Positions 2,362-26,281 of a stretch of 64,000 nt of DNA are shown here, piece after piece. Where the stretch lies: the NCBI GenBank assembly GCA_035528895.1, contig DATKXS010000038.1, positions 23,895 to 87,894 of the forward strand, read 5' to 3'. The position numbers were made by a program, and so were the translations under genes. Within the stretch, counting starts at the first letter, position 1. Each line of letters begins with the position of its first letter. This stretch comes from Candidatus Desulfaltia sp. (lineage in GTDB: Bacteria; Acidobacteriota; Aminicenantia; Aminicenantales; UBA8522). The notes beneath the pieces are model-generated. The model had not been told where the DNA came from and searched no databases. It saw only the letters and a program-made list of their open reading frames with translations.

Positions 2362-4068
2362 TCAATGAGGCTTTTGTCCGTTCTCGACGGCGACCGAAAC
2401 GCCCCCCACGGCTCCGCTCCCCGTCTCCAGATTCCGGATGATCACCCGGCATTCATAAATTCCCGGGGCCAGCTTGAAATCGGCTTCATAGGTGTCTCGG
2501 TTTTTCAAGAACTCGGCGGATGATTCTTCTTCCCGCTTCAGCTCGACCGTGTTCCCGTTTTCGTCGAAAACGATGCTGACGATCTCGTATTTGCCCTGCA
2601 GGACTTCCCGGATTTTATCCAGAGGCAGTTCGGCGGAGAGGCAAAGATTGGAGGTCTTGTCCGGCGGACACGGCCTTCGCACAACTGCTAAGCTGACTGG
2701 CGTCTGGAAGACCGGCTCCTCGTTGAGGGCCAGGTCGACGAGATGAAGCATTTTTTCAAGCTCGTTATACTCTTTGAACAGCTTGGGATTATAGTATCCC
2801 TTCTGGGCGTGGACCTCACATTCCGGCCGGGCGATTTCGACCTTGATCGTGTGGAAGGCGCCGTCCCACTTCTCGTCAATGGCGTAGCCCAGGACGTAAT
2901 AACAGCCGGTCAAGTTCTGGATCTTCTCGATGTGTTCCTCATAGCGGTTGATGTTGCCGAAATACTTGCCTCCCGTGGCGCTGGTCATCTTTTGGAGGGT
3001 GAATACGCCCATCGTCCGGATTTCTTTCTTGAGACTCGCTCCAGCGTCTTCGGTATCCAACGCATAAATGAGGCAATTCGAAGCAGTCAATTCGTGGAGC
3101 ATGTCTTCGTACCGCTGTTTGAGGAGAGAATTCCCGAAGTCTCCAAAACGCACGTCTCCATAGGGGGCCTGGATTCCATAGATGAGGGAATAGGGAACTC
3201 CGGAAGAGAAAAGGACGATATTCTTCTGACCCGATATATAGCGCAGAGCCATGGCCAGTTCTTTGATGCGGTCGGCGAACATCACGGCGTGGAGCTCCCC
3301 TCTCTCTGCGAATTTCAGGGACTTGAGTTCCAACGATCTGTCGAGATCAGGCTTGGCGCCCATATCGGGCAGCCGTTTCTCCGGACCCCGGAGGGTCGCC
3401 CGGCCCCATGCCTCGATATCGACGGGATTCTGCCCCGTCACGGCTTCGTAATATTTTTCCTGGAGATTGTCCACCCGGCCGGAGAGTTTCTTCAGGCCAA
3501 AGGACTCGACGACCTCCCGCACTTTTTTATGGTCGGCCGTCAGATATTCCCAGAGCTCCAGGTTCTCCAAGCCGGAATAGGAGAGGATACCGACCTCATC
3601 CGTCGGCAGGAGGTGGGAGTCGATGAAATGAAGGGCCGCTTCCTTGGCCTTGATGAGCCCTTTGGGGCTATTATGGGCAAAATCGAAGAACAGGAAGAAT
3701 TTGCGCGGCATCAGGTGGCGCGGCGGCAGGAGGGGCGTCTCCTCCAAGCTCACCGGAAGTTCTACTGCACCCGGGGAAGGGAATTTCAAGGTATGCTTCT
3801 CGAATTCGGTGATGACCTGTTCCTTCCCGTTATCGAATATGTGGAAATCGTCCTTCCCTAGGTCCAGGACAGGATTGCCCTTTTTATCCACAACGAAAAC
3901 CTGGACCAGCTTCAGGGTTACGGTGACTTCATGACGGATCTCGGTTTTCTCCTGCGGGTTTTGCTGAGGATAGACGGGCCGCCCGGAAACAGAAAGTGCC
4001 CCTGATATCAGGATGGAAGCTGCGGTCGAAAGGAGAATGGATTTCATTTCCCCTGCTTTCTTTCTCAT
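2362..4068 (-). CDS. Secreted VWA-domain protein with N-terminal VWFA-related Acidobacterial domain
   Basis: Signal-peptide-like N-terminus (MRKKAGEMKSILLSTAASILISGALS). VTVTLKLVQVFVVDKKGNPVLDLGKDDFHIFDNGKEQVITEFE resembles the TIGR03436-type domain. Exact start (M18 vs M25) is uncertain. Confidence 0.6.
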   Translation of the reverse strand: MRKKAGEMKSILLSTAASILISGALSVSGRPVYPQQNPQEKTEIRHEVTVTLKLVQVFVVDKKGNPVLDLGKDDFHIFDNGKEQVITEFEKHTLKFPSPGAVELPVSLEETPLLPPRHLMPRKFFLFFDFAHNSPKGLIKAKEAALHFIDSHLLPTDEVGILSYSGLENLELWEYLTADHKKVREVVESFGLKKLSGRVDNLQEKYYEAVTGQNPVDIEAWGRATLRGPEKRLPDMGAKPDLDRSLELKSLKFAERGELHAVMFADRIKELAMALRYISGQKNIVLFSSGVPYSLIYGIQAPYGDVRFGDFGNSLLKQRYEDMLHELTASNCLIYALDTEDAGASLKKEIRTMGVFTLQKMTSATGGKYFGNINRYEEHIEKIQNLTGCYYVLGYAIDEKWDGAFHTIKVEIARPECEVHAQKGYYNPKLFKEYNELEKMLHLVDLALNEEPVFQTPVSLAVVRRPCPPDKTSNLCLSAELPLDKIREVLQGKYEIVSIVFDENGNTVELKREEESSAEFLKNRDTYEADFKLAPGIYECRVIIRNLETGSGAVGGVSVAVENGQKPH

Positions 4069-18653: not shown

Positions 18654-19877
18654 TTACCTTGTCAACGACGCGGTCTTGAGGACGAACCCGCGCCTCTGCT
18701 CGAACTCGTAGACGGTGTCGAGCATCTTTTCCCGGACCGTCAGGAGCGAGCCGAACCCGTACTTCTCCCGCACCCGGTCGACGGCCGCACCCAGCCGCTC
18801 TTCCCGGTCCGAGTACGGCTCGAAGAGAGAAAGGGACCTGGCCCTGACCAGGTCCGAGGCCTTGACGCCGACGAGCCTCAAGGCCAGCCGCGACGAGGCG
18901 AAAAGATTCAGGAAAAGGTCCTCGGCGACCCGGTAGATCCCGCCCATCTCCTGGAGGGGTGTCAGCAGGAGGCGGCGCCGCACCTCGGTCTTGAAGTCGG
19001 AGTAGCGGGCCTTGACCTCGATGACGTGGGCGAAGAGGTGCTCCTGCCGCAGGCCGAGGGTCAGCCGGTCGCAGAGATAGGCGAGATGAGCGAGGAGCAG
19101 CCGCCTGTCCCAGAGGTCCTCGAGGAAGGTCGTCTCCCGCGAGACGGACTTGGGGACGGTGGGCGTAAACACGGGCCGGCTGTCGATCCCGCGCGACTGA
19201 AGATAGACCTCCTCGCCCTCGAGACCGAAGAGGGAGCGCAGCGCCGGCCGCGGCATCCCCCAGAGGTCGCCGATCTTGTGGATGTTGAGCATCCGGAGGA
19301 CGACCTGGGCCTTGGGCCCGATCCCGGGCAGGCTCTCGATGCCGAGGCCGCGGAGGAACTCCTCCTCGCAACCCTCCTCAACCTCGAAGAACCCGGCGGG
19401 CTTGGCCTTTTTGGTGGCCAGTTTGGCCAGGATCTTGTTGGGCGCCATACCAACCGAGACCTTGAGTCCGGTCGCTTTCTCAATGCGCGCCTTCATCTGC
19501 CGGGCGACGGCGGAGAAGGACGAATAGAGCGGCCGGCAGCGGGTGAAATCGAGGTAGGCCTCGTCGAGCGAGGCCTCCTCGACGTCGGGCGTGTACTCAT
19601 GGAGGATGCGGAAGAACTTCTCGGAGAAGGCCTGGTAAACCTGGTAGTTACCGCGGATGAAGAGGCCGTTCGGGCAGAGCTGGTAGGCCTTGCGCAGGGG
19701 CATGCCGGAGTGGACGCCGTAGCGGCGGGCCTCGTAGTTGCAGGTCGAGGCCACGCCCCGCTCGTGGGGCAGACCGCCGACGATGACCGGCTTCCCTTTC
19801 AGGGCGGGGTCGAGCAGCTCCTCGACGGCCGCGAAAAAGGCGTCGATGTCGATGTGGACGATCGAGCGGCGCTTCAT
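18654..19877 (-). CDS. dinB: Y-family DNA polymerase (DinB/Pol IV-like; occupies the ImuB position of the cassette)
   Basis: MKRRSIVHIDIDAFFAAVEE... and SLDEAYLDFT retain the catalytic Asp/Asp/Glu, followed by little-finger-like helix-hairpin-helix regions. The longer annotated N-terminal extension is not supported. Confidence 0.75.
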   Translation of the reverse strand: MKRRSIVHIDIDAFFAAVEELLDPALKGKPVIVGGLPHERGVASTCNYEARRYGVHSGMPLRKAYQLCPNGLFIRGNYQVYQAFSEKFFRILHEYTPDVEEASLDEAYLDFTRCRPLYSSFSAVARQMKARIEKATGLKVSVGMAPNKILAKLATKKAKPAGFFEVEEGCEEEFLRGLGIESLPGIGPKAQVVLRMLNIHKIGDLWGMPRPALRSLFGLEGEEVYLQSRGIDSRPVFTPTVPKSVSRETTFLEDLWDRRLLLAHLAYLCDRLTLGLRQEHLFAHVIEVKARYSDFKTEVRRRLLLTPLQEMGGIYRVAEDLFLNLFASSRLALRLVGVKASDLVRARSLSLFEPYSDREERLGAAVDRVREKYGFGSLLTVREKMLDTVYEFEQRRGFVLKTASLTR

Positions 19878-20071
19878 CCCGGCCTCGTTTTCATTTGAAT
19901 CGCTCTTCCGCCCTTCCCTTCTCCGTCCAGTTGTCATTGCGAGGAACCTTGTGACGAAGCAATCTCCAACTGAGATGGCTTCGCTAATGCTCGCCATGAC
20001 ATACTGTCGTACTGCATCCGCGATGACAAAAAGTCCTCCTGCAATCAGAGCCGCACATAGAGGGACCTCCC

Positions 20072-20689
20072 TCAGTACTTCCGCAGCAGGCCGACGACCC
20101 TGCCGACGACCCGAAGCTCCTTGACCTCGACTGGCGCGAACTCCGGGTTCTCGGGAACGAGGAGGATCCGGCCGTTCTCCTTGCGGAGCCTTTTCAACGT
20201 CACCGAGCCGTCGTCCAGGCGCGCCACGACCATCTCGCCGGACTGGGCCGTGTTCGTCCTCTCCAGGAGCACCCGGTCGCCGTCGTCGATGTAGGCGTCC
20301 ACCATGCTCTTCCCGGCGACGCGGACACAGAAGATGTTGCCGCGGCGGCGGCCGACCATCCACTCGGGCACGTCCACACTCTCGCCGAGAGAGTCGAAGA
20401 CCTCCTGGGCCCGGCCGGCGGGAGCGACGCCGACGAGGGGGACCTTGACCCGGTTCTCGAACGGCGAGGGGATCCCGGCGAGGCGCAACTCCCCGGCCTC
20501 ACGGCTGAGGTAGCCCTTCCTTTCCAGGCTCAGGACGTGCTTGAAGACGGCCGAGGGATTGGCCAGGCCCAGCTGTCTTCCGAGCTCGCGGATGGTCGGG
20601 GGAAAGCCGTGCTCGAGGACAAAGGCCTCGATGACCTGGAGGGCCTTTCTCTGGCGCTGGGTCAGCTCTTTGTACAATCTGTTCACCAT
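20072..20689 (-). CDS. lexA: LexA repressor
   Basis: N-terminal winged HTH (QRQRKALQVIEAFVLEHGFPPTIRELGRQLGL), a VAPAG cleavage-site region, and S24 peptidase Ser (GKSM) and Lys (TLKRL). ATG start with an AAGGTG RBS. The annotated upstream TTG start would overlap the -35 element. Confidence 0.85.
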   Translation of the reverse strand: MVNRLYKELTQRQRKALQVIEAFVLEHGFPPTIRELGRQLGLANPSAVFKHVLSLERKGYLSREAGELRLAGIPSPFENRVKVPLVGVAPAGRAQEVFDSLGESVDVPEWMVGRRRGNIFCVRVAGKSMVDAYIDDGDRVLLERTNTAQSGEMVVARLDDGSVTLKRLRKENGRILLVPENPEFAPVEVKELRVVGRVVGLLRKY

Positions 20690-20705
20690 TTTGTTCACCT
20701 TATAT

Positions 20706-20734
20706 ACAATAGGCCGCCGGGAGGCCCTTGTCAA
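20706..20734 (-). promoter_or_regulatory. Putative lexA promoter (TTGACA-17 nt-TATTGT on the minus strand)
   Basis: The -35 is the reverse complement of 20729-20734 and the -10 the reverse complement of 20706-20711, with a 17-nt spacer. A degenerate SOS-box-like element (TTGTTC-N7-ATACAA, 20691-20709) overlaps the -10 and start region. Confidence 0.35.
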
Positions 20735-20792
20735 GTATAAAATTCAGGGAAGGATTATTTTGCTTTTTCCTCTTGACAGAGGCTACAAATTA

Positions 20793-20832
20793 TTGTATAT
20801 AATCATACAATTAATTGTATTTTTTTATACAA
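20793..20832. promoter_or_regulatory. Two tandem palindromes TTGTAT-N6-ATACAA (candidate LexA operators / SOS boxes)
   Basis: Box 1 (20793-20810) is TTGTATATAATCATACAA and box 2 (20815-20832) is TTGTATTTTTTTATACAA. They resemble the gammaproteobacterial CTGT-N8-ACAG box. Box 1 overlaps the -10 of a TTGACA(20773-20778)-17 nt-TATATA plus-strand promoter. Confidence 0.5.
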
Positions 20833-20954
20833 ATAATCGCATGAACAATCGAGCAAATAAAGAACTCCTTTTAGCCAGACTGGCAGACTGGGACAGCTTT
20901 CTCAGAAGGCGGGTTAAGGGTATTTTTTAAAGCTTATCAAAGAGAGGAATTCAA

Positions 20955-21626
20955 ATGGAAAATAACGAAAATCTTCTTAAGAAGGTTCGCTGGCTTGGCT
21001 ATCCTCTATTTGAAACAGAGGAACATGAGGATGCCAATGAGATCTTGGCCGATGTTGTGAAAAGTGAGAACCCCCGACTTTGGCAGGGATTTCCAGTTAT
21101 GTTGGCCAACAGCGAGGAAAGAAATGTCTTCGATTACAATCGGGTTCTGTCTTTATTGAAAGCCCCGGATAAAAGAGACCATTTTCATCGTCTGCTGTTG
21201 GTGTCTTATGTCGTATACAAGATACAAAACCTGGAATCGGCTTGGGTCTCGGACCTGCAAAAGATTTTTGGGCCAGCCGATATAAAAGACATAGGAAAGC
21301 TCGTCAATCAATTCGTCGCCAAAGAGTATATCCAGGTGGGATCGGTTCGGTTGTCAAGCGAAAAAATCAAGACTGTTTTCCGGGACTATTTTGGGAAAGC
21401 TGGGTCCAGAATAGAAAATATATTATCTGTCCGGGAGGAATTCGGATTGGAATATTCCCTGTCGCAGATATTCTCTCCTTCGCAAAAAGAAATAATTCTA
21501 AAAAAGCTGAGACGGGAAAAGCTCTCAAAAACCGAGGCTGAATACTTTTCCAGAACGATCAAGAAAAAGCTGTTGGCCCTTGCAAATCCCGAGTTACAGC
21601 GCCTGGCCCGCCAGCTTATTGAATGA
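20955..21626 (+). CDS. Hypothetical protein (223 aa) on an AT-rich islet, transcribed divergently from lexA
   Basis: Clean ORF with a clearly lower GC content than its neighbours and no recognisable family motifs. A promoter overlapped by the SOS-like palindromes lies upstream. Confidence 0.5.
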   Translation: MENNENLLKKVRWLGYPLFETEEHEDANEILADVVKSENPRLWQGFPVMLANSEERNVFDYNRVLSLLKAPDKRDHFHRLLLVSYVVYKIQNLESAWVSDLQKIFGPADIKDIGKLVNQFVAKEYIQVGSVRLSSEKIKTVFRDYFGKAGSRIENILSVREEFGLEYSLSQIFSPSQKEIILKKLRREKLSKTEAEYFSRTIKKKLLALANPELQRLARQLIE

Positions 21627-21673
21627 ATATTCAAATTGAATTATTTAGCTGGTAGCCGTACGGACATCGCTAA

Positions 21674-22470
21674 GTGATTGACGCGCAGATTAAAGATAAG
21701 ACGGCCTTGATTACCGGGGCGAACACCGGGATCGGGAAGGCAACCGCCCTGGCCTTTGCCGCGAAAGGGACGAATGTCGTCATCCATTATCTCGGCCGAA
21801 AGGCTGAGATCAAAGAGCCCTTCCAGCCGGAATACGCTTGTGAGGGAAAGAGGGCGCCATGGAATTGGCCGGTCAAATCAAGAACAAAGGCGGCCAGGCG
21901 ATTATTACTGAAGCCAATTTGATGGTGCCCGAGGCCATTCCCGGGCTGTTCGATGAGGCGGACAAGGCTTTCGGCCGAGTCGATATCCCGGTCAATAATG
22001 CGGCCCACTGCGAACTGCCCGACGATATCTTCTCAGTGACGGCATCGAACATCGAGCGTCATTTTGCGGTCAACACGAGAGCGGCTGTGCTCTTGATTTC
22101 GGAATTCGTCAAGAGACACAAGTTGAGGGGCGGAGATTGGGGGCGAATAATCAATCTCAGTACAGACGCCGCTCAAGCCTTTGCCACTCAAATATCCTAT
22201 GGAGCCAGCAAGGCCGCCATCGAAGCCTATACAAGAAGCATTGCCTGGGAGGTCGGCCATCTCGGGATCACAGTCAATACAGTCGCGCCGGGGCCCGTTC
22301 AAACCGGATGGATGAGCGCCGAACTGGTGGATAAGGTCTTGCCGGACATTCCCCTCGGACGAGTCGGGACGCCGGAAGACATCGCCGACGTCATCGTCTT
22401 CCTCGCCTCAGACCAGGCCCGCTGGCTGACGGGCCAGGTCATCAAGGTCTCCGGCGGACCCAATCTCTAG
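21674..22470 (+). pseudogene. SDR-family oxidoreductase interrupted by a frameshift (or sequencing indel)
   Basis: The N-terminal fragment (TALITGANTGIGKATALAFAAKG...VVIHY, frame of 21674) and the C-terminal fragment (GGQAIITEANL...NNAA...YGASKAA...SGGPNL, frame of 21859) together form one classical SDR. The frame switch is near 21836-21848. Confidence 0.6.
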
Positions 22471-22526
22471 AAAGCTCTTTTTGCGTCGATAGGGGGCGAG
22501 GATGCTTTGTCTCGTTCGAGCCCGCC

Positions 22527-23960
22527 CTAGCGGTCGAGGGTGACCTCTTCGCGGTAGTCGATTGATATCTTGGGCCCTTTCTTCGATTTGAGCAGCTGAA
22601 TCGCCTTAAGATATAGCTCGTTCTTCTTCTGCCAGACCCGGTTCAGGTGCCTGGCATATCCGGCGATTCCTACGTCCAGCCATTTCCCTTTTATTAGTTT
22701 TCTCACCATTTGTTTGAGCGAGTAAAACTTCTTATGGCTGAAGATCTGGGCCCGTTGCAGGTCGAAAAGGGACAAGCGGGCGGGCTGGAAGACGACATGA
22801 TGGGCATCGTACAGAGCCCAATCCCGGAACTGAATCCGATTCTCGTGACTCACCTTGTCAAAAAATTCCGATCCGGGAAGCGGCGTCAGGATAAGGAATT
22901 GAGTGGAATTCAGCTTCGACCGCTTGGCGAACTTGACCGTCTGCTTGACGGTCTTCCAGTCGTCCTCGTCAAACCCATAAACGAACATCCCATGAATGCC
23001 GATCCGATGCTTCCGGAGGACTTTTATGGCGTCCGCTATTTCTTCGACGGTCTGCTTTTTCTTCATGGATCTTAGGCTCTCCGGGTTTACTGATTCAAAT
23101 CCGATGTAGAGCGTATGGCAGCCGGCCTTCTTCATCAGCCTGACCAGATCCAGGTCTTTGGCTACATCGGCGCGCACCTGGGTCGTCCACTTGAACTTGA
23201 ACCCCTCGCGGATCATCGCTTCCAACAATTCCTTGGCCCGTTTGCGGTCGGCGGTGAAATTATCATCATAGAAAAAAATGCGGTTTTTGCGCTCGTTATA
23301 GCGCCGCAGCTCTTCCATGATATTTTCGGTCGAGCGGAACCGGTATTTCTTGCCGAACATGCTCGTCACGGAGCAGAAGGAACAGTCAAACGGACAGCCC
23401 CTGCTTGTCTGGACGGGGATGCTGCTCAACCTGGATATCCCCTTTCTCGTCGATTTGAGCAAGGAGAGATCCGGGAACGGGATTTGATCGAGGTCCTTCA
23501 CGAACGGCCGCAGGACGTTGTGAATTTTCCGGCCGTTTTCTCTATAGGACAGACTGGGAATCCCGGTGAAACTCTCGCCTTTTTCCCAAGCGTCGATAAA
23601 AGCCATCAGGGTCTGTTCCCCTTCCCCGCGGACGATGAAGTCCGCGTGCTCCAGTGCTTCATCGGCCAGGAAGGTCACATGCGGCCCCCCCATCAGGACC
23701 GGGATCCCCCGCTTCCTGACCCTGTCCGCTATGGCATAGGCCCTGGGTGCAGTCGAGGTGATGGTCGAGATTCCTACCAGGTCAGCGGATTCGACAACCG
23801 CAAAGTCGATTTCCCGCAGTTCCTCTACGAAAATTTCCACCTCCCAGCCCCGCTCCTTCATCATCGTGCCCAGGATGATCGGGCCCAGCCGGGGCAGGGG
23901 GAAGCGCGAAAAAATGTGCAGGTTGGGAGCCTTGGGTTCGATGAAAACAATCTTGCTCAT
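22527..23960 (-). CDS. B12-binding domain radical SAM protein (class B)
   Basis: N-terminal cobalamin-binding Rossmann-like domain (GISTITSTAP...VLMGGPHVT...VRGEGE) and the radical SAM cluster motif CPFDCSFC. 4-nt overlap (ATGA) with the upstream MerR-like gene. Confidence 0.8.
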   Translation of the reverse strand: MSKIVFIEPKAPNLHIFSRFPLPRLGPIILGTMMKERGWEVEIFVEELREIDFAVVESADLVGISTITSTAPRAYAIADRVRKRGIPVLMGGPHVTFLADEALEHADFIVRGEGEQTLMAFIDAWEKGESFTGIPSLSYRENGRKIHNVLRPFVKDLDQIPFPDLSLLKSTRKGISRLSSIPVQTSRGCPFDCSFCSVTSMFGKKYRFRSTENIMEELRRYNERKNRIFFYDDNFTADRKRAKELLEAMIREGFKFKWTTQVRADVAKDLDLVRLMKKAGCHTLYIGFESVNPESLRSMKKKQTVEEIADAIKVLRKHRIGIHGMFVYGFDEDDWKTVKQTVKFAKRSKLNSTQFLILTPLPGSEFFDKVSHENRIQFRDWALYDAHHVVFQPARLSLFDLQRAQIFSHKKFYSLKQMVRKLIKGKWLDVGIAGYARHLNRVWQKKNELYLKAIQLLKSKKGPKISIDYREEVTLDR

Positions 23961-24679
23961 TTCACCCTCTCTTGCTTTTTCTTGCCGTCCCTCTTCAGGT
24001 TCTTGGCTTTCAGGCTCAAAATTTCCTTCCTTTTCTTCTTGAGCAGGTCTTCCCAGCGCTTGATACCCTTATCGAGAATTTCCATCTTGTCCAGGACGAC
24101 CTTGATCTCCATGAGCATGGCCTCCAGCTTGGTCGAAACCTCGGCCTTGGGGAAGCCCCCCAGATTTTCCTGGATAGCCAAGAAATATCGAAAATAATCG
24201 GATATCTCCTTAATTTCCTCGAGGGTGTAGCCGAAGAGCTGAAGGTCACGGATGAGTTCGCAAAGATAGATATAGCCTCCCGAATAGAGCCGAAACCCGC
24301 CCTCGCTGCGCATATCGGGCTCGATGATACCCTTGTCCTCCCAGTGTTTGATCGTCCGCGGGCTCAGCCCGACGCGTTCGGCCAGGTTCCCGATGGTCAG
24401 GTACTGGTCCGGATCCTCGGGTTTTCGCTTTCTTTCGGCGGTCTTCGGCAGCCCCACTTTTTTGAGAATTTTCTGAATATCCTCTGTTTCGTAACCGAGA
24501 TCGGTGAGCTTTTGAATATATCCGATCCTCTCCATCACCTCTTCCGAATAGAGAGGGACCCGGTCCTCGGTGAAACCGACCGGCTTCAGCAGTTTGGTCC
24601 TCTCCCATTCCCGGAGAGACGCCTCCTCGAGCTTAAACCTGGCGATAAACTCATCGCGGGTGAAGATGTGATTGTTCAA
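23957..24679 (-). CDS. MerR-family transcriptional regulator with tandem MerR-like HTH halves
   Basis: A clear MerR HTH (YLTIGNLAERVGLSPRTIKHWEDKGII...FRLY) in the second half, and a weaker MerR-like segment in the first half (FTRDEFIARFKLEEASLREWERTKLLKP...RVPLY). TTG start. Confidence 0.65.
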   Translation of the reverse strand: MNNHIFTRDEFIARFKLEEASLREWERTKLLKPVGFTEDRVPLYSEEVMERIGYIQKLTDLGYETEDIQKILKKVGLPKTAERKRKPEDPDQYLTIGNLAERVGLSPRTIKHWEDKGIIEPDMRSEGGFRLYSGGYIYLCELIRDLQLFGYTLEEIKEISDYFRYFLAIQENLGGFPKAEVSTKLEAMLMEIKVVLDKMEILDKGIKRWEDLLKKKRKEILSLKAKNLKRDGKKKQERVK

Positions 24680-24842
24680 ATAATACCTGCACGTATAATT
24701 ATATTACGCATCATTACAACCTATACGTATATGATTAATTGAATATTGTGCCCTTGTCAAGCTCTTTTTTCTATGCGGATTGGTGGTGAGACCTTTGTCC
24801 TGGCCCCTTGCCAAAAGAGATCGCGCATGCGATAAATAAACC

Positions 24843-25568
24843 ATGGCCAAAGAAAAGCAGCCCAACTCCGAACGACTAAAAAAAAGGCTCGACCTCGAGA
24901 CGCCCCTCATCGGCTTCTACGATGCCCCGGACCCGGCGATCTTCGAGCCGCTCGTCTCCCCCGAGGAACGCCAATGCGTCTATGCCTTTTATCAGTGCTG
25001 GCTCCGGGGCGAGACGCTCCATCTCACCAAGGATCGATACGGCTGCGGCGGCGCCGGTCATTGGATGTGGGGAGTGCAACTTCGGTCGAGAAAGGAATTC
25101 CTTGAATTCCTGGCCAACGATGAAGGGCTAAAGGTCTCGCGCTCGCTCATGGGAAAATGGATAGACGCCGCAAAACCCTACCGGGCCGAACACGCTCATC
25201 TCTTTCTCGGACCACTCAAGGAAGACGCCTGGCCCTATGCCAAATCCATCACCTTCCTGGTGAACCCGGACCAATTGAGCGCCCTGGCCATCGGCGCCCA
25301 GTACCGCAGCGCCCCCGAAGATCCTGCCCCGGTGATCGCCCCGTTCGGGTCGGGGTGTTCCCAAATCCTGCCGTTTGTAGATTTGAACATCGCCCAGGCA
25401 TCGATCGGGGCCACTGACATCGCCATGCGGCAACACCTTCCCCCGGACATGCTGAGCTTCACGGTCACGCGACTGATGTTCAAACAGCTCTGCGAGCTGG
25501 ACGAGAGGAGTTTTCTCTACAAGCCTTTCCTGGAGCGGCTGAAGCAATCCCGAGGCGGGAAGCTTTAA
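24843..25568 (+). CDS. DUF169 (COG2043) family protein
   Basis: About 240 aa with a Cys/Gly-rich core (CVYAFYQCW...YGCGGAGHWMWG) reminiscent of DUF169. No catalytic assignment possible. Confidence 0.4.
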   Translation: MAKEKQPNSERLKKRLDLETPLIGFYDAPDPAIFEPLVSPEERQCVYAFYQCWLRGETLHLTKDRYGCGGAGHWMWGVQLRSRKEFLEFLANDEGLKVSRSLMGKWIDAAKPYRAEHAHLFLGPLKEDAWPYAKSITFLVNPDQLSALAIGAQYRSAPEDPAPVIAPFGSGCSQILPFVDLNIAQASIGATDIAMRQHLPPDMLSFTVTRLMFKQLCELDERSFLYKPFLERLKQSRGGKL

Positions 25569-26281
25569 AGCTTCCAGGCACCGGCGACGATAAGATTCGT
25601 GCCGGTGATGTGAGCGGCCTTGTCGGAAGCCAGGAAGCGGACGGCCTCGGCAACGTCCATCTTCTTGCCGAAATATTCCGCTGACAGCTTCCCACCCGCG
25701 GGCATGATCCCGCCCTCGATCAGACCGGGCGACACCATGTTCACGGTGATCCCCGCTTTGAATTCCGAGGCGGCGGCGGAGCGGGTCAGAATGAGGAGAG
25801 CGGTCTTGGCCACGGCATAGGCGGTGATCTTGGAAAAGGCGGTGAGCTGTTCGACGCGGTGGTATCCGATGTTGATGATCCTGCCCCAACCGCGCCCTCT
25901 CATCTCCGGGAGCGCGGCCGTGATTCCCCAGGCGGCGCTCAGAAAAACGCTCCGGTACATCCGTTCCCAGTCGGCGGTCGTCAGCTCCTGCCAGGGCTTG
26001 ACGATGATCGGGCCGAAATTGTTGACCAGGACATCCAACCGGCCGAAATGCTCTTCCACTCCGCGGATCAACCCCCTGGCCTCCTGTTCAAAGGTCAGAT
26101 CGGCCGAGAACGCTTTGGCCGGCTTTCCTTTTTTCTCGATCTCAGTCATGACCTCAGCGGCGGCCTGCTCATTTTCTTTGTAGTGAACGGCAATGCCGGC
26201 CATGTCCTCAGCCAGCAAGACGGCGATCTCCCGGCCGATCCCCCGGCTGCTCCCGGTGACCAGAGCAATTCGCTTGTTCAT
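25565..26281 (-). CDS. SDR-family oxidoreductase
   Basis: TGSSRGIGREIA Rossmann motif, NNFG, and the Y-x3-K active-site pattern (YAVAKTA). Confidence 0.8.
   Translation of the reverse strand: MNKRIALVTGSSRGIGREIAVLLAEDMAGIAVHYKENEQAAAEVMTEIEKKGKPAKAFSADLTFEQEARGLIRGVEEHFGRLDVLVNNFGPIIVKPWQELTTADWERMYRSVFLSAAWGITAALPEMRGRGWGRIINIGYHRVEQLTAFSKITAYAVAKTALLILTRSAAASEFKAGITVNMVSPGLIEGGIMPAGGKLSAEYFGKKMDVAEAVRFLASDKAAHITGTNLIVAGAWKL

Follow-up and report, generated by a model that had tools for sequence, protein, structure and literature searches.

An AT-rich islet beside lexA

Within a 64,000-nt stretch of Candidatus Desulfaltia sp. DNA (contig DATKXS010000038.1; referred to here as the window), an AT-rich islet next to lexA carries a 223-aa open reading frame (ORF) behind a promoter overlapped by palindromes. 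An earlier reading of the letters alone (the original prediction) had proposed that this gene is an orphan member of the SOS response. Comparison with relatives placed the ORF in a two-gene cassette, in which a nucleotidyltransferase (NTase) gene precedes the gene of a partner protein, represented in the window by the 223-aa ORF. The islet contains the following features (positions are those of the window; L-numbers denote individual homologous loci).

20700-21660, no strand: AT-rich islet (promoter/operator, NTase stub and partner gene), a near-certain remnant of a horizontally acquired cassette
20773-20778, + strand: -35 box TTGACA of the cassette promoter; CTTGACA stands at a fixed distance from the operator in 72 unique loci
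20793-20810, no strand: operator palindrome 1, TTGTATATAATCATACAA, with perfect arms formed by half-sites h1 (TTGTAT) and h2 (ATACAA); overlaps the -10 box
20796-20801, + strand: -10 box TATATA within palindrome 1, separated from the -35 box by 17 nt; most relatives have TATACT
20815-20832, no strand: operator palindrome 2, TTGTATTTTTTTATACAA, with perfect arms formed by half-sites h3 and h4; 22 nt after palindrome 1 and 3′ of the predicted transcription start
20837-20843, + strand: decayed fifth half-site TCGCATG (TTGTATG in relatives), overlapping the NTase start codon
20841-20930, + strand: stub of the DUF6036 NTase gene, 29 codons (MNNRANKELLLARLADWDSFLRRRVKGIF) followed by a stop
20919-20922, no strand: junction of a 463-bp internal deletion, from alignments with L001, L004 and L008
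20942-20948, + strand: Shine-Dalgarno-like GAGAGGA of the partner gene
20955-21626, + strand: partner gene, the 223-aa ORF, intact and with an ATG start

In 300-nt windows over 20550-21750 the GC content was 0.36-0.46, compared with 0.65-0.69 just upstream and 0.53-0.61 downstream, bearing out the AT-rich islet; the single 223-aa ORF described originally was confirmed as well. The segment is also compositionally foreign, as had been proposed: GC of the 223-aa gene is 0.44 against 0.59 for its flanks, and the gene was 0.13-0.17 below the flanks in the window and in all of its syntenic relatives, a GC-rich clade. Cassette GC was lower than that of the flanks in most hosts, with a mean difference of 0.05. 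The low GC content is consistent with acquisition from a low-GC donor.

The 223-aa protein gave no significant match in family scans against Pfam, NCBIfam, PHROGs and PADLOC, its family profile found no match below E 0.2 among PDB sequences, structure comparison returned no fold match, and an Rfam scan of 20500-21800 was also negative. The partner has no curated family, and the statement that it belongs to no recognisable family held for the databases named, but not in the sense of an orphan. A metagenome-scale search recovered 251 homologues, all of 220-225 aa; one of them, which is 100% identical, comes from a metagenome-assembled genome (MAG) of Candidatus Desulfaltia sp. labelled Thermodesulfobacteriota. 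With so large a family of constant length, the gene cannot be called an orphan. Searching 1.8 billion representatives with a profile yielded 481 clusters at 50% identity, and a scan of one genome per species located relatives in 273 species, most of them Omnitrophota, with some Elusimicrobiota, Planctomycetota, Desulfobacterota (= Thermodesulfobacteriota) and members of the candidate phyla radiation (CPR). Searching the protein with tblastn against PLSDB plasmids and INPHARED phages produced no match, and IMG/VR contained a single partial match (L087, see below).

The surviving gene is the second gene of a DUF6036 cassette

In the relatives L001 (88% identity) and L004 (79%), dnaE2, dinB and lexA are followed by a divergent 195-aa DUF6036 NTase gene and then by the 223-aa gene. 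The same NTase-partner pair is found in L006 (52% identity) among transposase, DUF1016, ORF6N and ars genes, with no lexA. Over 86 loci analyzed with tblastn, a full-length NTase gene lay directly 5′ of the partner in the great majority. Among genome loci retrieved with the partner as query, ~63 of the 74 that could be assessed had the pair; among metagenome loci retrieved with the NTase as query, all 79 that could be assessed had it. The NTase, of ~190 aa in intact relatives, occupies the space between operator and partner; that of L001 matched Pfam PF19502 (DUF6036) with E 3e-9 and 37.2 bits against a gathering cut-off of 23.6, and PF19502 was detected in all NTase homologues listed except P0350. 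The ATG of the partner is located inside the NTase gene, by 11 nt in L001 and L004 and by 4 nt in L006, an overlap that suggests translational coupling, and in intact cassettes the GAGAGGA of the partner gene falls within the 3′ end of the NTase gene.

Alignment of the window with L001, L004 and L008 showed that the promoter, the operator, the NTase ATG (20841) and ~26 codons have been kept, and that similarity picks up again ~30 nt 5′ of the partner ATG. The ~26 first codons of the stub match the N-terminus of intact NTases (tblastn match 20841-20918), and the 463-bp deletion took NTase codons ~27 to ~188. The start-to-start distance from NTase to partner has consequently shrunk to ~115 nt in the window, compared with 578 nt where the NTase is intact. 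Neither gene has a second copy in the 64 kb. The islet is therefore almost certainly what remains of an NTase-partner cassette whose NTase gene was deleted, with palindromes that are the operator of the cassette itself and not LexA boxes.

Genes flanking the cassette are highly variable: 118 such ORFs matched 141 Pfam families in total, with Fic/Doc, AbiEii, HigB/Gp49, ORF6N and AAA_14-DUF4143 among the types that recur. These changing neighbourhoods of toxin-antitoxin and defence genes agree with the earlier suggestion of a mobile locus of toxin or defence type.

A half-site array spans the cassette promoter

Both palindromes read TTGTAT-N6-ATACAA. Allowing up to two mismatches, this motif matched three times in the window (0.35 expected; none of 100 shuffles reached three), and its only two copies in the 64 kb both lie at the cassette promoter. 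The half-sites alternate at a 22-nt register and ATACAA-N4-TTGTAT at 20805-20820 is a perfect 16-mer, so the latter pairing is equally valid. The TTGACA/TATATA promoter, with one perfect-armed palindrome over the -10 box and a second one downstream, was correctly recognised at the outset, as was the architecture of a tightly repressed gene.

Tandem TTGTAT-N6-ATACA(A/G) copies, 22 nt apart and just 5′ of the NTase ATG, were found in nearly all loci covering that region, and the TTGTAT/ATACAA motif was almost absent elsewhere in the ~10-kb loci scanned. When 72 unique promoter regions were stacked on the array, the consensus was CTTGACA, 17 nt, TTGTATACTTTAATACAG (which holds the TATACT -10 box in palindrome 1), N4, TTGTAT-N6-ATACAA, N4, TTGTATG, the ATG of the final element being the NTase start. 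The conserved array therefore spans the -10 box, the +1 region and the ATG, and its five half-sites approach maximal information, with variable spacers. Within the lexA-adjacent clade, 1 of 24 half-site columns varied compared with 14 of 20 spacer columns (p = 4e-6), demonstrating that the half-sites are under selection even in a clade with NTase-less copies. This operator, in which invariant 6-bp half-sites alternate with variable spacers at a phase of 22 bp, is unusually well suited to biochemistry.

Leaders of the Omnitrophota type (e.g. L066 4369-4415 and L006 5057-5105) have no Shine-Dalgarno sequence beside the NTase ATG and carry a purine-rich AGAGGA/AGAGAA between h2 and h3, ~28 nt upstream of that ATG. 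The same leaders can fold into nested h2/h5 and h3/h4 hairpins of -7 to -13 kcal/mol, which may add a layer of control at the RNA level.

The array is not tied to lexA

The neighbour of the islet on its lexA side lies outside the cassette.

20072-20689, - strand: lexA (TIGR00498, E 4e-48)
20734-20729 and 20711-20706, - strand: lexA's own promoter, TTGACA and TATTGT separated by 17 nt

Genes resembling dinB and dnaE2 come after lexA, confirming the reported divergence of the 223-aa gene from lexA beside dinB-dnaE2. From this arrangement it had been proposed that the palindromes are LexA operators and the gene a DNA-damage-inducible member of the SOS regulon. The E. coli LexA box is a 16-bp CTGT-N8-ACAG element, and LexA motifs differ between phyla. 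In favour of the proposal, the two genes are divergent in this genome, the AT-rich palindromes cover the -10 box and the +1 region and bear a loose resemblance to the E. coli SOS box with its TGTAT...ATACA core, and an additional half-site, TATACAA, is present at the lexA -10 box (20700-20711). However, the identical array, with the same -35 and -10 boxes, precedes the cassette in ~70 loci that lack lexA within 5 kb and belong to several phyla, among them Omnitrophota, Elusimicrobiota and Planctomycetota, and lexA is within reach only in the window's own clade (L001, L002, L004, L007, L008 and L010). The lone half-site in the lexA promoter reads TATAAAA in four of the six syntenic relatives, the array is missing from lexA's own promoter, and the motif has no further copy in the window. 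Moreover, the palindromes are 18 bp long and not 16, with an arm of TTG and not CTG.

Because the array travels with the cassette through phyla whose LexA motifs differ, and does so where lexA is missing from the vicinity, it is best regarded as an intrinsic cassette operator, with lexA the accidental neighbour of an insertion site in this one lineage. Neither repression by LexA nor wiring into the SOS response was borne out; the SOS model is already largely refuted by these observations, and we consider it extremely improbable. The lead thus proves false for the window, which offers no new SOS gene.

The only conserved element near lexA is a direct repeat at 20675-20698 with a 12-nt period, TGTTCAC-N5-TGTTCAC (GGTGAACA-N4-GGTGAACA on the lexA strand), which overlaps the lexA ribosome-binding site (RBS) and ATG and is kept in all six syntenic loci. 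It could be the real LexA site of this lineage, or reflect only coding and RBS conservation. As an alternative LexA box it occurs once in the window, a count matched by 13 of 100 shuffles, and owing to this single occurrence the repeat is uninformative. The closest relatives of the window locus (L007-L011) share dnaE2-dinB-lexA synteny with it, and their LexA proteins are 85-91% identical to that of the window; given this synteny and identity, the MAG labels 'uncultured Eubacteriales' and 'Bathyarchaeia' attached to them are probably unreliable.

The NTase is lost repeatedly and the partner is retained

The NTase gene was deleted, each time with a different breakpoint, in 9 of the 74 assessable genome loci, in addition to the window. 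Eight of these loci have start-to-start distances of 136, 122, 106, 285, 279, 143, 13 and 175 nt, and the ninth has no trace of the NTase gene; two further loci appear disrupted, possibly raising the number of losses to 11 of 74. By comparison, the partner was lost in 0 of the 79 assessable metagenome loci (Fisher p 0.001 to 0.0002 for NTase loss versus partner loss, in samples obtained from different databases with different queries).

In the lexA-adjacent clade, the window, L010 and L007 each carry a different deletion, and a neighbour-joining tree of partner proteins interleaved these three loci with intact copies. A single deletion shared by the window and L010 was considered and rejected: their start distances are 115 and 122 nt, and L010 groups with the NTase-intact L008. 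Estimates of dN/dS (non-synonymous over synonymous substitution rates) for the partner gene were 0.07-0.16, including NTase-less pairs (0.15 for the window and L010, 0.16 for the window and L007), demonstrating that the gene is still under purifying selection. The window's protein departs from near-invariant residues at three positions only (L87V, V202I and H215Q). The window copy is a degenerate example of the cassette. The repeated and independent loss of the NTase with the partner kept provides a natural experiment on the persistence of orphan antitoxins, should the partner be one.

The partner is a candidate DNA-binding protein

The N-terminal domain of the partner is helical; its C-terminal domain, likewise predicted to form helices, is basic and highly conserved. 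In the window's protein the C-terminal domain comprises residues ~172-223, with a pI of 10.3; across the family the C-terminal 52 aa have a pI of ~10.4, and the C-terminal ~60 residues are the most conserved part. Scanned alone against Pfam, with E values up to 10 admitted, the C-terminal domain matched no helix-turn-helix (HTH) family. The IMG/VR viral contig L087 encodes, at 2842-3258 and beside a RecA-like gene, a 138-aa protein in which an HNH_3 endonuclease is joined to this domain (56% identity over 55 residues). The fusion indicates that the C-terminal domain is an independent module, probably one that binds DNA, and such a setting would be typical of DNA-binding modules.

Additional evidence comes from loci in which the NTase is gone. 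The operator half-sites are under selection across the six clade loci, three of which lack this gene, indicating that the factor reading the operator is either the partner or a host protein, and the partner is the sole cassette protein left where the operator remains conserved. From the basic conserved C-terminal domain, the HNH_3 fusion and this persistence beside a conserved operator, we infer that the partner binds DNA, and we think it probable that the putative target is the cassette operator and the outcome autorepression.

A profile search with the C-terminal domain for other architectures returned, besides the HNH fusion, only short fragments or decayed copies. Partner ORFs reduced to the C-terminal part, at 3001-3171 in L168 and L169, 2024-3279 in L170 and 761-1003 in L171, represent decayed cassettes. 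In L170 the partner fragment follows a truncated DUF6036 gene, and in L168 it is situated in a toxin-antitoxin and defence island, among HigB/HTH_3, an ImmA-like M78 peptidase with HTH_31, and AbiEii with DUF6577.

A putative toxin-antitoxin mechanism and its alternatives

The NTase retains all catalytic motifs of the polymerase-beta type and a MenT1-like fold, and its best structural match is a toxin. It gave no Pfam match to AbiEii (DUF1814/PF08843); a PADLOC AbiEii match (E 0.006) covered the core only. An intact cassette comprises a sigma-70-type promoter, five alternating half-sites at a 22-bp register, the NTase, and a ~222-aa partner gene overlapping the end of the NTase gene. In the mechanism we propose, the NTase would act as a growth-inhibiting effector and the partner would neutralise it, while the partner's basic C-terminal helical domain would bind the half-site array and repress its own promoter, as in systems of the AbiE and MenAT types. 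With the effector deleted and the partner as neutraliser and autorepressor, the window copy would be an orphan antitoxin/autorepressor, intact behind an intact promoter and operator, and could be kept as immunity to incoming cassette copies or have been co-opted.

We infer toxicity, neutralisation and DNA binding from the observations above, and they differ in strength. That the islet is a decayed cassette of toxin-antitoxin-like NTase type, with the surviving partner as neutraliser or autorepressor, appears probable as a whole; the more specific proposal of a MenT-like toxic effector, a neutralising partner and an orphan antitoxin in the window has somewhat better than an even chance. The earlier suggestion that the 223-aa gene itself encodes a toxin did not hold up, since the gene is probably the neutralising or regulatory half of the cassette. 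Several observations weigh against this interpretation. By sequence the NTase is not a DUF1814/AbiEii protein (Pfam assigns DUF6036, and the PADLOC AbiEii score is only E = 0.006), and the effector-first gene order is opposite to that of AbiE and MenAT1. In addition, the window's protein has Gln in place of the near-invariant His215, and the loss counts compared above came from genomes for one gene (partner query) and from metagenomes for the other (NTase query).

The main rival is an NTase that acts on a small molecule, nucleotidylating an antibiotic or metabolite in the manner of ANT(2″) or Lnu, accompanied by a dedicated repressor or sensor of which the window would keep only the regulator. 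The structural scores obtained with ANT(2″) and LnuA support this rival, but a regulator controlling nothing except itself would not be expected under purifying selection (dN/dS ~0.15) in many independent NTase-less lineages. Equally, an NTase without its partner was encountered in 0 of 79 loci, the two genes overlap, the variable neighbourhoods are rich in toxin-antitoxin and defence genes, and the closest structural match is a toxin, all of which make a small-molecule enzyme unlikely. The reverse assignment of roles, with the 223-aa protein as the toxin and the NTase as an antitoxin that modifies it, would follow the type VII HepT-MntA (HEPN-MNT) scheme, and an NTase gene followed by an all-helical partner gene is indeed the order of MNT-HEPN modules. 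However, at least 10 genomes that have deleted the NTase keep the partner intact, with its promoter undamaged and purifying selection still acting, a pattern of loss that marks the NTase and not the partner as the dispensable or dangerous component. The partner alignment also shows no conserved Rx4-6H HEPN motif and structure comparison found no HEPN-like fold. Because the partner persists alone and is devoid of the HEPN motif and fold, roles of the HepT-MntA type are improbable.

For the repeats, it is conceivable that they act mainly as hairpins in an RNA leader that controls translation of the first gene, and not as a protein-bound DNA operator. Half-sites h3, h4 and h5 do fall within the predicted 5′ leader, where nested or alternative hairpins of -6 to -13 kcal/mol include the AUG, and most copies lack a Shine-Dalgarno sequence next to the NTase ATG. 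Yet h1 and h2, in the -10 region and upstream of the likely transcription start, are conserved like h3-h5, and the arms are conserved in sequence and not through compensatory change. The 22-bp register, two helical turns, suggests a protein bound to one face of the DNA; furthermore, the AU-rich stems are weak, Rfam contains no match, and the array is retained in copies without the first gene. We therefore regard the RNA leader as a highly improbable explanation of the array, and a protein-bound operator as the better account of it.

Relation to known systems

MenT toxins are paired with antitoxins from different protein families (PMC10435456). Compared with MenAT1 (MenT1/Rv0078A toxin and MenA1/Rv0078B antitoxin) of the wider MenAT family of M. 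tuberculosis, the cassette NTase has no detectable sequence similarity to MenT1, belongs to DUF6036 and not to DUF1814, and is encoded by the first gene. The cassette partner has 223 aa and an unmatched fold, whereas MenA1 has 68 aa and no apparent DNA-binding domain (PMC10435456).

AbiE is a bicistronic operon that is negatively autoregulated by the AbiEi antitoxin (PMC3985639). The cassette resembles this type IV system (AbiEi/AbiEii) in its bicistronic overlapping operon, in an NTase effector candidate with polymerase-beta motifs and in the weak PADLOC AbiEii match to the NTase core. It differs in that the partner is not a COG5340/AbiEi protein and lacks an N-terminal winged HTH, in its reversed gene order, and in an operator of five 6-bp half-sites at a 22-bp register. 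The AbiE operator consists of two 23-bp inverted repeats, and autoregulation reportedly proceeds through cooperative binding to inverted repeats in the promoter. In function the cassette appears to resemble AbiE and MenAT. It falls outside both families by their defining sequence criteria, having a DUF6036 NTase, a partner that is not of the AbiEi/COG5340 or MenA1 kind, and its two genes in reversed order.

Orphan antitoxins are known from toxin-antitoxin surveys. The window copy is similar to them in that the effector is deleted and the presumed neutraliser is kept with its promoter under purifying selection, an outcome reached repeatedly and independently; the difference is that the parent cassette here is a putative toxin-antitoxin system.

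Full-text searches for DUF6036 and PF19502 found no mention of either in the library covered. The comparisons define a compact, undescribed cassette that is present in at least 273 species genomes. Were the proposed mechanism correct, the cassette would connect DUF6036, a domain of unknown function, with the NTase toxins of the MenT-like kind, and its antitoxin/regulator would have a new fold. On the broadest view, to which we give a little less than an even chance, the DUF6036 NTase and its 222-aa partner may represent a widespread family of toxin-antitoxin or abortive-infection systems of the NTase type that has not been described before and has its centre in Omnitrophota and other uncultured lineages. 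Such a family would combine a new-fold antitoxin, whose new C-terminal DNA-binding domain is shared with a phage HNH endonuclease, with a near-invariant operator of five half-sites, and would have decayed repeatedly to a selectively maintained orphan antitoxin that may give immunity to re-invasion.

Genes around the islet

The longest dinB-like ORF of the window (18654-20363, - strand; 569 aa from a GTG) overlaps lexA, and its IMS domain begins at residue 171. The dinB homologues have 427 aa in L001 and 407 aa in L004. Given the late IMS start and the shorter homologues, the true dinB start is probably well downstream of the GTG, near the end of lexA.

Directly 3′ of the islet, a short-chain dehydrogenase (SDR) gene is broken into the overlapping ORFs 21674-21922 and 21859-22470, each of which matched adh_short; the split SDR at 21674-22470 reflects either a frameshift that made it a pseudogene or a mistake in the assembly. 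Next to the cassette in L001 and L004 come DUF169 and an adh_short gene on the reverse strand (compared region L001 6672-7027 versus window 21660-24840); the window has these two genes at 24843-25568 and 25565-26281. Between them and the cassette the window contains ~3.2 kb of extra DNA, comprising the broken SDR gene, a B12-binding radical SAM gene (22527-23960) and a MerR-type regulator (23957-24679). A second AT-rich dip at ~24640-24840 corresponds to the divergent MerR/DUF169 intergenic region.

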